Of a stretch of 39,782 bases of DNA, positions 33,879 through 35,275 are shown in pieces (the first letter of the stretch is position 1; every line of letters starts with the position of its first letter). Origin of the DNA: a virus; the IMG/VR virus record IMGVR_UViG_3300033407_000054, positions 1 through 39,782 of that record. The stretch is one strand, 5' to 3'. The position numbers and the translations under genes were made by a program. The notes beneath the pieces were generated by a model. That model had not been told where the DNA came from. It saw only the letters and a program-made list of their open reading frames with translations, and searched no databases.

Positions 33879-34061
33879 TCACTCATCTTTCTTCTCTTCA
33901 TTGAATATTTTTACCTCAACGATACTAATACACACCCTACAATCTTTTAAGGCTGTTAGAGTATTAGTTTTAATGTTCCAATTCAGAGAGGGTTCTAACA
34001 TATCATCATAAATAATTGTTTCTTTTTCATTATCCTTATTCAATTCCTTGACCATCACCAA
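33879..34061 (-). CDS. Hypothetical small protein
   Basis: 60-aa ORF overlapping the end of the third Gly-repeat gene. Confidence 0.3.
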   Translation of the reverse strand: MVMVKELNKDNEKETIIYDDMLEPSLNWNIKTNTLTALKDCRVCISIVEVKIFNEEKKDE

Positions 34062-34305
34062 ATCCCTCTCCCTCTAACGAGCCAAATCCAAATCCAGATC
34101 CAGATCCCGGTCCATTTCCAGATCCCGTTTCAGATCCATCTCCCGAGCCATCTCCAAATCCCAATCCCAATCCAAATCCATTTCCTTCTCCATCTCCATC
34201 ACCGAATCCATCTCCCGATCTATATCCAGATCCATCACCAAATCCAAAGCCATAGCCAGATCCATCTCCATCACACAATAAATCTTCTTTTAGTGGGCTT
34301 TCCAT
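34036..34305 (-). CDS. Acidic Gly-X repeat protein, paralogue 3
   Basis: 89 aa: MESPLKEDLLCDGDGSGYGFGFGDGSGY...GFGFGSLEGEGFGDGQGIE, almost entirely G alternating with D/S/F/E/N. Confidence 0.5.
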   Translation of the reverse strand: MESPLKEDLLCDGDGSGYGFGFGDGSGYRSGDGFGDGDGEGNGFGLGLGFGDGSGDGSETGSGNGPGSGSGFGFGSLEGEGFGDGQGIE

Positions 34306-34604
34306 TCAGGTACTCCTTGAATAGACTTTTTAGCTTTTTCAGTAGCTTCTATAATCTCAATCACTTCAGTCAGATTAATACGAGAGACTTCACAAGGAAA
34401 TTTACATTCGTCAGGACAGGATACTCCTTTCATAGCAAGCTCACTTAAAGAGCAAGCTCCTTTCCAATACCAAATTCTTCTAGCATTAGTTAAAAATACT
34501 TCTTTATCTTTTTTAACTTGCAAAAATCCTGCAAATACACCTGCTGAATAAGTTCTGCATATAACATATTTTCCAACCATCATTTCATCTAAATTTTGTT
34601 CCAT
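34290..34604 (-). CDS. Small conserved-looking phage protein of unknown function (ARRIWYWKGACSLSELA motif)
   Basis: 104-aa ORF with normal composition, interleaved between the Gly-repeat genes. Confidence 0.45.
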   Translation of the reverse strand: MEQNLDEMMVGKYVICRTYSAGVFAGFLQVKKDKEVFLTNARRIWYWKGACSLSELAMKGVSCPDECKFPCEVSRINLTEVIEIIEATEKAKKSIQGVPEWKAH

Positions 34605-34640
34605 AATATTTCCTATATTTTAGGTTTTTAATAGTAAAGT

Positions 34641-34910
34641 TTATCCGTCTCCATCTCCATCATCAAATCCAATTCCCGATACAGATCTATCAGCAAATCC
34701 AAATCCCTCTCCATCTCCATCTCCATCTCCATGTCCATCTCCCGAGCCAAATCCAAAGCCAAAGCCTGATCCAGATCCATTTCCTTCTCCCGAGCCATCT
34801 CCAGATCCAGATATCGATCCAAATCCATCACCATCTCCCGATCCATCTCCATCTTGTTGTGAAGGGTATTCATAGAGACTTTCAAAATCTTTGATTAATG
34901 CATCTTCCAT
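34641..34910 (-). CDS. Acidic Gly-X repeat protein, paralogue 2
   Basis: 89 aa. The N-terminus MEDALIKDFESLYEYPSQQDGDGSGDG... shares the F.SLYE.PS leader with paralogue 1. Confidence 0.5.
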   Translation of the reverse strand: MEDALIKDFESLYEYPSQQDGDGSGDGDGFGSISGSGDGSGEGNGSGSGFGFGFGSGDGHGDGDGDGEGFGFADRSVSGIGFDDGDGDG

Positions 34911-34933
34911 TCAGACATATCTTTAATATTTTT

Positions 34934-35275
34934 TTATACAGATCCATCATCAAATCCATATCCATCTCCATATCCCGATCCAAATCCCGATTCAACTCCG
35001 GATCCATCTTCCCATTCAAATCCCAATCCCGATCCAAATCCCGATCCATCTCCCGATCCATCTCCCGATCCAAATCCCGATCCCAATCCCGATCCAAATC
35101 CCGATCCATCTCCCGATCCATCTCCCGATCCAAATCCCGATCCTGATCCCGATCCCGATCCCGATCCCGATCCCGATCCAAATCCCGATCCTGATCCTGA
35201 TCCCGATCCCGATCCCGATCCCGATCCCGATCCATCACAAGAGGGATCTTCATAGAGACTTTTAAAATACTTCAT
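34934..35275 (-). CDS. Acidic Gly-X repeat protein, paralogue 1
   Basis: 113 aa: MKYFKSLYEDPSCDGSGSGSGSG...GFGSGDGSGDGSGFGSGLGS x2. AAGGA lies 9 nt upstream of this ATG and supports this frame over the two other open frames. Confidence 0.55.
   Translation of the reverse strand: MKYFKSLYEDPSCDGSGSGSGSGSGSGSGSGFGSGSGSGSGSGSGSGFGSGDGSGDGSGFGSGLGSGFGSGDGSGDGSGFGSGLGFEWEDGSGVESGFGSGYGDGYGFDDGSV
34975..35234. repeat. Hexanucleotide (GATCCC/GATCCA/AATCCC) microsatellite containing an exact 60-bp tandem duplication
   Basis: 35021-35080 is identical to 35081-35140. 35139-35234 is a near-perfect run of 16 hexamers, most of which carry a GATC site. Confidence 0.9.

Follow-up and report, generated by a model that had tools for sequence, protein, structure and literature searches.

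In Hfq, the C-terminal domain is acidic and disordered; it acts as a mimic of nucleic acid and provides autoregulation of the Sm core (PMC5606850). The Acinetobacter baumannii protein requires both its GGFGGQ repeats and its acidic tip (PMC11617691). Polyphosphate, a flexible polyanion, scaffolds Hfq into droplets with DNA, silencing prophages (PMC10954037). Proteins with an LSm-like fold have also been described from Tevenvirinae, namely T4 GoF and MotB.1 (PMC12152347). Here, we analyze a stretch of viral DNA (positions 1 to 39,782 of IMG/VR record IMGVR_UViG_3300033407_000054; hereafter the window) that carries three genes, GX1, GX2, and GX3, for acidic proteins in which glycine (Gly) alternates with a second residue (Gly-X). 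We find that these genes belong to a widespread class already present in public records, whose members typically start within the end of a gene for a DUF6948 protein. We tentatively propose that Gly-X proteins act as the detached acidic tail or scaffold of DUF6948, which is predicted to be Sm-like.

Results

The window encodes three strongly acidic Gly-X proteins. Their genes lie on the minus strand around a DUF6948 gene, and the features of this cassette are as follows (lengths in amino acids, aa):

34934–35275, minus strand: GX1, 113 aa; 13-aa leader MKYFKSLYEDPSC, then (G-[S/F/D/L])n
34641–34910, minus strand: GX2, 89 aa; leader MEDALIKDFESLYEYPSQQ, then (G-[D/S/F/E])n
34290–34604, minus strand: DUF6948 gene, 104 aa, between GX2 and GX3; Pfam match at 1.5e-30
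34290–34318, minus strand: coupling junction, with AAGGAG at 34313–34318, the GX3 ATG at 34303–34305, and the DUF6948 stop codon TAA at 34290–34292
34036–34305, minus strand: GX3, 89 aa; leader MESPLKEDLLC, then (G-[D/S/F/E/L/Y/N])n

An earlier reading made from the sequence alone (the sequence-only reading) had placed three minus-strand open reading frames (ORFs) of 113, 89, and 89 aa here, exactly where the ORF listing and the sequence place them; public gene calls on the source contig give the identical three ORFs. Their translated N-termini (GX1 MKYFKSLYEDPSCDGSG..., GX2 MEDALIKDFESLYEYPSQQDGDG..., and GX3 MESPLKEDLLCDGDG...) are the leaders quoted in that reading. In an alignment, the leaders span 11–19 residues, after which Gly occupies alternate positions; Gly accounts for 40%, 34%, and 39% of all residues in GX1, GX2, and GX3, respectively. 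Acidic residues (D+E) number 14, 21, and 17 against two basic residues (K+R) in each protein, and net charge ranges from −12 to −19. Past the leader, the only basic residues are a single Arg in GX2 and a single Arg in GX3, and computed pI lies at the floor of the method (~4), in agreement with the near-absence of basic residues and the extreme acidity claimed earlier. All three proteins fit one pattern: a short leader, an unbroken G-X repeat to the C-terminus, a net negative charge, and no further domain.

The coding status and family membership of the Gly-X genes are near certain. Scored against codon usage in 27 long ORFs from the same window, the Gly-X frame gains +0.63 to +0.72 bit per codon, and both remaining sense frames score below zero; in antisense, the highest-scoring frame reaches +0.46 for GX1, +0.19 for GX2, and +0.10 for GX3. 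Shine-Dalgarno (SD) motifs precede the ATG by 7–8 nucleotides (nt) at GX1 (AAGGA, 35283–35287) and GX3 (AAGGAG, 34313–34318). Codon usage thus upholds the view that these are real paralogous genes for polyanionic low-complexity proteins, whose disorder is predicted from a structural model. That model, built for GX3 from 14 sequences, has a mean predicted local distance difference test score (pLDDT) of 31.8, with every residue below 50, and GX3 is accordingly predicted to be a disordered polypeptide. Pfam, PHROGs, NCBIfam, and PADLOC returned sub-threshold low-complexity matches alone for the Gly-X proteins (TrAA12, ser_rich). Sequence matches in the PDB to the Gly-X profile were engineered GS linkers and other low-complexity stretches, and nothing else. 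A DNA-mimic anti-restriction protein of the Ocr or ArdA kind was considered and rejected, given a pLDDT of 31.8 throughout GX3 and no Pfam, PHROG, or PADLOC match.

The DNA repeats keep the reading frame. Tandem Repeats Finder detected periods of 6, 12, 18, and 48 nt, all multiples of 3, and the protein period is 2. GX1 contains a 12-nt array of 22 copies; it is a near-perfect (GGATCG)n array with an internal 60-nt duplication, in which 23 of 30 Ser codons are TCG, a codon that is rare in this genome (9% genome-wide). Within the 39.8-kb window, Gly-X runs of at least five pairs are confined to the GX genes and occur in 0 of 50 shuffles; the sole exception is a pair of 10-residue runs, GIGIGIGIGI, which are GX1 read in another frame. 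On its minus strand, GX1 also carries two G-quadruplex (G4) motifs (G3N1-7 x4; 35148–35174 and 35202–35228) and 26 GGG tracts. Relatives use other codons, so the GGG tracts, G4 motifs, and GATC sites of GX1 are local by-products of (GGATCG)n. Two DNA-level candidates were rejected: a G-quadruplex element, which is confined to GX1 of this phage and unconserved, and a GATC/Dam-site decoy, as the observed/expected ratio of GATC is 1.26 elsewhere in the window and the 41 sites of the region are a by-product of GGA-TCN.

The start of GX3 is built into the end of DUF6948. GX3 begins 13 nt ahead of the DUF6948 stop codon, in the −1 frame, so that the two genes overlap by 16 nt. Its ATG consists of the last base of a Glu codon and the conserved C-terminal Trp codon of DUF6948 (GAA-TGG-AAA). 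The same arrangement characterizes the family, in which the ATG combines the last base of a codon with the Trp codon of a C-terminal V-P-x-W-K motif (junction consensus GTgccngtATGGaannnnTAa). This explains why partner proteins frequently start with “ME,” and leaders across the family are partly set by the overlap with DUF6948. The conserved element of the junction is the start codon itself, which is ATG or, at some loci, GTG or TTG; approximately two-thirds of loci have an SD-like motif ahead of it.

A Gly-X partner follows DUF6948 in viruses and in genomes from many phyla. From 578 relatives confirmed in IMG/VR via a DUF6948 alignment, 80 viral contigs were fetched. A same-strand Gly-X ORF follows DUF6948 in 76 of these 80 loci, and it is in the −1 frame in 74; in 73, the distance from its start to the first base of the DUF6948 stop codon is 10 nt (69 loci) or 13 nt (4 loci). 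The partner products (median 82.5 aa, range 37–149) comprise a leader of 4–22 aa and then the repeat up to the stop codon, with no other domain. Gly-X density is 102 residues/kb in the 700 nt downstream of DUF6948, compared with 0.67/kb elsewhere in the same loci, and nearly all cases elsewhere are additional tandem copies downstream. Among GTDB genomes, the partner is present in 69 of 73 assessable loci, starting at −10 in 53, at −13 in 5, and at −16 in 5. These loci come from Verrucomicrobia, Acidobacteria, Ignavibacteria, Firmicutes, Proteobacteria, Planctomycetes, Cyanobacteria, the Candidate Phyla Radiation, and others.

GX3 is the canonical downstream partner of DUF6948. GX1 and GX2 share the N-terminal segment SLYE(D/Y)PS and, judged by their sequences, are recent tandem copies of each other. 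The conserved leader ascribed to all three genes in the sequence-only reading is therefore only partly retained: it is near-identical in GX1 and GX2, but absent from GX3, and family leaders vary. Tandem Gly-X arrays occur elsewhere too (four genes in locus L038, at least four in L053, three in L041, and two in L049), while placement upstream of DUF6948, as for GX1 and GX2, recurs in only ~3 of 80 relatives. The closest DUF6948 relative (L001, 81% identical) has no counterparts of GX1 and GX2; its DUF6948 gene is followed by a diverged overlapping ORF that begins MNKIVYEDHSGSGYGSVDGCGNGWGYGYG... and is interrupted by the contig end. Given their near-identical leaders and their position upstream of DUF6948, we regard GX1 and GX2 as lineage-specific extras.

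The pair is also present in named phages, under labels that conceal it. It is formed by CDS0033 and then CDS0032 in Pectobacterium phage Koroua, and is likewise found in relatives of Koroua. In Iodobacter phage phiPLPE, gp84 is followed by an unannotated partner ORF (L098, 1164–1409), and in Ralstonia phage NK-7 the partner is annotated as a “fibroin heavy chain-like protein.” For gene_25 of Chlorobiaceae phage CV-1-33 (MT192033; L099, 2286–2531), the deposited product is MAMAMALAMA..., a misframed translation of a GYGDGDGSG... ORF. Thus, members of the class appear in GenBank as “hypothetical protein” or “fibroin heavy chain-like protein,” or are unannotated or given in the wrong frame. The Gly-X partner class is conserved yet unrecognized, with no Pfam, PHROG, or NCBIfam family. 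The sequence-only reading knew of no phage system of this composition. As regards the literature this stands: our search returned no paper that combines DUF6948, DUF7666, or “fibroin heavy chain-like” with phage, and none of the papers returned on phage glycine-rich repeats or on phage Sm-like or disordered low-complexity proteins describes the cassette. The composition itself, however, is widespread in phages and prophages and already in GenBank.

Selection acts on the Gly-X protein. Across loci of 32–68% GC, the X positions are Ser (36%), Tyr (26%), and Asp (20%), with similar values in every GC tertile; in the window, Phe largely takes the place of Tyr. Codons differ, with mainly GGC and TCT/TCC in relatives and GGA and TCG in the window. 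Constant composition over this GC range, encoded by differing codons, indicates that selection acts on the protein. The partners are negatively charged with just 2 exceptions in 73 (median net charge −8). Furthermore, ten contigs (L180–L189) with an identical DUF6948 (P0014) and an identical leader (METINPSY) display at least six repeat orders, all in frame. This shows that frame and composition are kept, while repeat order and length are free, and is consistent with fast repeat evolution by replication slippage or recombination. It is also the opposite of a repeat whose length varies regardless of frame, the observation that the sequence-only reading had named as telling against its proposal. 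Nine of the ten P0014 contigs end inside the repeat, 36–282 nt past the DUF6948 stop codon, as do ~18 of the 80 IMG/VR contigs. The Gly-X repeat thus breaks short-read assemblies, and repeat lengths in databases are unreliable.

The repeat recurs in frame beside unrelated domains. These are DUF7666, a TIGR02996-like N-terminal domain, and a family that we refer to as helix-GX-C-domain, in which a repeat of 11 to >90 residues lies between two conserved segments (alignment members include P0122, P0126, L010, and L011). The segment ALIKDFESL of GX2 aligns in hhalign with e~IkefL of the N-terminal MExLEExIKEFL helix of this family, although the score is dominated by the repeat. Its C-domain is absent from the window in six-frame translation (best hmmsearch E 0.1). 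In gut-associated phages or prophages (L010, 2929–3450; L011, 2267–2836; L164, L165, and L173), the gene that follows DUF6948 keeps the overlapping start but encodes a short Gly-X linker and then a conserved globular domain of ~150 aa. The motif of this globular C-domain, IDGIPTII..N.AKG..FAHG.TL..WHH.LTGSC..GR, belongs to no Pfam or PHROG family. Two other loci carry (Ser-[Gly/Trp/Arg/Lys])n ORFs directly upstream of DUF6948 (L013, 2686–2892; L014, 2465–2647 and 2647–2967), with the common leaders MLVDNTNLSFKEKS / MLVTSANLAYEKKS. These are a basic/aromatic counterpart of the acidic Gly-X proteins and occupy the position equivalent to GX2.

DUF6948 is predicted to adopt an Sm-like fold. The family, whose gene in the window went unmentioned in the sequence-only reading, comprises 2,629 clusters at 50% identity (E ≤ 1e-3). 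An AlphaFold2 model from 28 sequences has a mean pLDDT of 92.9 and shows a helix, five strands, and a C-terminal helix; as modeled, it matches the description of the Sm fold, an N-terminal helix followed by a strongly bent five-stranded β-sheet. In a Foldseek search of the PDB, the top 50 matches were all Sm/LSm structures (E from 5e-4; target-normalized TM score up to 0.81), including archaeal SmAP, yeast and human LSm, and spliceosomal Sm proteins. A viral structure library yielded DUF6948 proteins along with phage proteins labeled “Sm-like domain” or “RNA binding protein.”

Some DUF6948 proteins carry an acidic Gly-rich tail in cis. Such C-terminal tails are found on P0176, P0287, P0360, P0246, and P0316. 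PHROG 18306 aligns with DUF6948 (2.5e-5) and, weakly, with GX3 (E 0.052), each at its own position, a hint of fused forms. The C-terminal extension of P0246, a 155-aa DUF6948 fusion, ends in ...DGADSEDDDGF, an acidic tip that closes in Phe. This tip recalls those at the C-termini of bacterial SSB and T7 gp2.5.

The wider neighborhood differs between the window and its relatives. Around the cassette, the window has the following features:

35552–36017, minus strand: two overlapping Tad2-like (DUF2829) genes (35799–36017 and 35552–35848) in the same gene string
35286–35588, minus strand: hypothetical ORF immediately upstream of GX1, ~89–100 aa, in the same gene string
33879–34061, minus strand: ORF overlapping the end of GX3, 58–60 aa, in another frame; unrelated to the C-domain of the helix-GX-C-domain family

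The candidate in which GX3 and the downstream ORF60 form a frameshifted helix-GX-C-domain member was rejected, with no relation in hhalign and the C-domain absent from six frames. The two Tad2-like genes had been recognized before, and Pfam PF11195 agrees (6e-10 and 2e-7; 39.9 and 32.0 bits against a cut-off of 25); their products are putative anti-Thoeris proteins. None of eight relative loci with Pfam-bearing gene tables has a Tad2-like gene within 4–6 kb. Instead, the cassettes of relatives sit among ERF or RecT, SSB, YqaJ, RusA, and AAA_24 genes, which mark an early recombination/replication region. The anti-defense neighborhood, described as typical in the sequence-only reading, is therefore peculiar to this phage, and the informative neighbor is DUF6948, not Tad2.

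The window represents nearly the whole of a 39,796-bp source contig from a tailed phage. Pfam matches include a P22-like portal, large terminase, ERF, YqaJ, RusA, ParA, an RHH/ParE pair, and a Vut_1 transporter. Adjoining the cassette are a ParA ATPase (30911–31657, plus strand), a Vut_1 membrane protein (31911–32573, minus strand) of the queuosine-precursor/vitamin transporter family, and an RHH-antitoxin/ParE-toxin pair (33181–33685, minus strand); this maintenance set suggests a phage-plasmid lifestyle. Two adjacent plus-strand proteins (9772–10686 and 10746–11924) contain the C-terminal domain of K1 capsule-specific polysaccharide lyase (E 4e-20 and 9e-17) and are probably tail spikes or fibers with an intramolecular chaperone. 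A 322-aa ORF (27555–28523, minus strand) weakly matches two domains at residues 150–210, U-box (E 3e-4; 21.3 bits, with a cut-off of 21.4) and zf-Nse (MIZ/SP-RING); this would place an E3-ligase domain of eukaryotic type in a phage. A contig binned to Simkania (Chlamydiae) carries the nearest named DUF6948 relative. By DNA, INPHARED contains no close phage relative, the best match being 83 nt. Promoter and terminator scans of the window gave counts no higher than shuffles, and Rfam and tRNA scans gave no match.

Discussion

We propose that Gly-X proteins are the detached acidic tail or scaffold of a phage Sm-like protein, and put the probability of this explanation as a whole at roughly 0.45. 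Through translational coupling at the overlapping start, the Gly-X polypeptide would be made stoichiometrically with the Sm-like protein and would then form its detached, flexible, polyanionic, and aromatic tail. By competing with nucleic acid for basic or aromatic patches on the Sm-like oligomer, such a tail might adjust specificity and turnover, in the manner of the acidic C-terminal domain of Hfq. Alternatively, it might be a multivalent scaffold that gathers the Sm-like protein and its RNA or single-stranded DNA (ssDNA) cargo into condensates in the early phase of infection, when recombination and replication take place. The three copies in the window could supply a higher dose or a diversified polyanion. 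Both the nucleic-acid mimic and the phase-separating scaffold suggested by the sequence-only reading stay viable, as functions held jointly with the Sm-like partner.

A more far-reaching version of the scaffold idea is speculative, and we consider it rather doubtful. Here, gene-encoded flexible polyanions and an Sm-like ring would assemble or disperse condensates of ribonucleoprotein or nucleoid at an early stage of infection, across more than ten bacterial phyla. They might, for example, organize the zone of ERF/RecT-SSB recombination and replication, or counter Hfq-polyphosphate silencing. Gly-X proteins would then be a protein analogue of polyphosphate or nucleic acid and a new class of phage protein, in which composition and gene position, not sequence, are conserved.

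Several observations weigh against a detached tail. The Sm assignment of DUF6948 leans on a predicted monomer with modest Foldseek E-values; DUF6948 has no LSM or Hfq match in Pfam at E ≤ 0.1, and a profile search of PDB sequences returned no Sm protein and nothing relevant. Sequence comparison thus gives no connection to Sm or Hfq, and the assignment comes from predicted structure. The core of DUF6948 has just a slight basic character (median pI 8.4; 7.6 for the copy in the window), and its charge does not covary with that of the partner (r = −0.02). A tail in trans would lack the high local concentration to which the C-terminal domain of Hfq owes its effect. GX1 and GX2 lie off the canonical position, and their leaders are unlike that of GX3. 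The low pLDDT of GX3 may equally be a failure of the model on low-complexity sequence. Finally, an interaction, RNA or DNA binding by DUF6948, and translation of the Gly-X ORFs are all presumed, and no proteomics or ribosome profiling was found for any Gly-X ORF.

Among the alternatives, the one that survives best is a stand-alone polyanionic decoy or anti-defense effector, which acts on host targets as a mimic of nucleic acid or polyphosphate, independently of DUF6948, and is linked to it through co-expression only. Candidate targets would be restriction enzymes, nucleic-acid sensors, SSB/RecBCD-type proteins, or Hfq-polyphosphate silencing. Strong negative charge combined with aromatic residues suits a decoy, as do hypervariable repeats; multi-copy arrays suggest a pattern of dosage or an arms race, and in the window the Gly-X genes share a gene string with the two Tad2-like genes. 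Those Tad2-like neighbors, however, are not seen in the relative loci with Pfam-bearing gene tables, and no anti-defense match was obtained for Gly-X proteins from PADLOC, PHROG, or Pfam. Known DNA mimics are rigid and folded, whereas GX3 has a pLDDT of 32. Furthermore, an overlap with DUF6948 that is conserved at ~95%, together with recurrent in-frame fusions, is hard to explain by co-expression alone and favors a joint function with DUF6948. We therefore consider the stand-alone decoy unlikely.

Less probable again is a low-complexity ORF that expands by neutral slippage, like a self-propagating microsatellite, and is translated without a selected function, or that is a mere spacer for translational coupling. 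The wide variation in length (37–149 aa) and repeat order fits this origin, as does the near-perfect (GGATCG)n array of GX1 with its rare Ser codon TCG; moreover, conservation extends to composition but to no sequence motif. Neutrality would nevertheless predict drift of composition with GC, frameshifts, and loss. What we find instead is ~95% retention across many phyla and 32–68% GC with the same Ser/Tyr/Asp composition, a conserved start, and negative charge, and ten variants beside an identical DUF6948 that are all in frame.

A fusion of DUF6948 and Gly-X by programmed −1 ribosomal frameshifting, placing the tail on a fraction of the Sm-like protein, is very improbable. Phage tail chaperones G and GT are made in this way, 74 of 80 viral loci place the partner in the −1 frame, and natural in-frame fusions exist. 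Yet a slippery X_XXY_YYZ heptamer occurs in the last 45 nt of only 11 of 122 loci and never within the 13-nt overlap, the junction in the window (GAA TGG AAA GCC) offers no slippery sequence, and the conserved element is a start codon, often with an SD-like motif.

Two further readings are the least probable. The sequence-only reading had offered a leader-plus-core precursor of a processed Gly-rich peptide (similar to microcins or to ribosomally synthesized and post-translationally modified peptides) or a Ca2+-binding matrix protein; SLYE(D/Y)PS is indeed common to GX1 and GX2 and Gly/Ser-rich cores occur in class II microcins, but the precursor idea fails for want of maturation, protease, or export genes in Pfam scans of the window's larger ORFs and in the gene tables of relatives, with leaders unconserved across the family and no Cys or heterocycle pattern, and the matrix idea is unsupported, with a repeat of period 2, rather than the RTX nonapeptide GGxGxDxUx, and no RTX or other Ca-binding Pfam match at E ≤ 0.1. 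Equally implausible is a non-coding DNA or RNA repeat with a G-rich-strand, G-quadruplex, or GATC function, or a protein in another frame (DR/DL/EM or antisense): further frames are open, GenBank gives gene_25 of CV-1-33 in the “MAMAMA” frame, and the sense strand of GX1 holds the only two canonical G4 motifs of the window and 28 GATC sites, but the GGC and TCT/TCC codons of relatives leave GGG tracts and GATC sites unconserved, GATC is not avoided elsewhere in the window, alternative sense frames are negative on codon usage, and the conserved start codon and globular-domain fusions are both in the Gly-X frame.

Pure (Gly-X)n genes are usually taken for low-complexity noise and are masked, left unannotated, or mis-framed. 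Their ~95% retention, conserved start, and constant composition over 32–68% GC make them a tractable part of phage “dark matter.” If an Sm-like protein with a tail in trans is indeed what the pair encodes, many phages own an Hfq-like module with a detachable disordered regulator. This would bear on how phages handle RNA and ssDNA early in infection, on the regulation of Sm proteins by polyanions, and on condensate formation in bacteria. The pair can be tested at the bench, since the cultured phages Koroua and its relatives, NK-7, and phiPLPE carry it.

Comparison with known systems

The closest parallel is Hfq, in which an Sm core likewise bears a flexible, Gly-rich, acidic segment, a mimic of nucleic acid that tunes the binding of RNA and DNA; on some DUF6948 proteins (P0176, P0287, P0360, and P0246) a segment of this kind is also present in cis. 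In the phages, however, the tail is usually a separate, coupled polypeptide with a strict period-2 G-X repeat in which X is Ser, Tyr, Asp, or Phe. DUF6948 also lacks detectable sequence similarity to Hfq or LSm, and a ring and RNA binding would be putative features, by analogy of predicted fold. Polyphosphate acting on Hfq similarly pairs a flexible polyanion with an Sm protein, but it is an inorganic polymer made by the host, whereas the phage polyanion would be an encoded polypeptide; the parallel is an analogy.

Other likenesses are more distant. T4 GoF and MotB.1 are small early phage proteins that are LSm-like by predicted structure alone, as is DUF6948; they belong to another sequence family, and neither “glycine” nor “disordered” appears in the main text of the paper that describes them (PMC12152347). 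The [G/S]Y[G/S] domains of FUS and hnRNP proteins, and (GS)n linkers, are rich in Gly, Ser, and Tyr, as are Gly-X proteins; disorder is established for the former and predicted for the latter. The FUS/hnRNP domains are eukaryotic, Q-rich, and uncharged, whereas the phage repeats alternate strictly and are strongly acidic. Silk fibroin heavy chain, (GAGAGS)n, also has Gly at alternate positions; its X is Ala or Ser and it forms β-sheet crystallites, whereas X in the phage proteins is Ser, Tyr/Phe, or Asp, with a charge of −8 to −19 and no predicted fold.

Eukaryotic Sm and LSm proteins carry dipeptide tails as well, the GR repeats of SmD1 and SmD3 and the RGG of LSm4. These again pair an Sm fold with Gly-X dipeptide repeats, but the eukaryotic tails are basic (Gly-Arg), fused, and methylated, while the phage repeats are acidic, aromatic, and separately encoded. 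With function inferred, the phage cassette is thus best described as a variation on the theme of an Sm core plus a disordered tail, here with the tail as a separate dipeptide-repeat protein defined by its composition.

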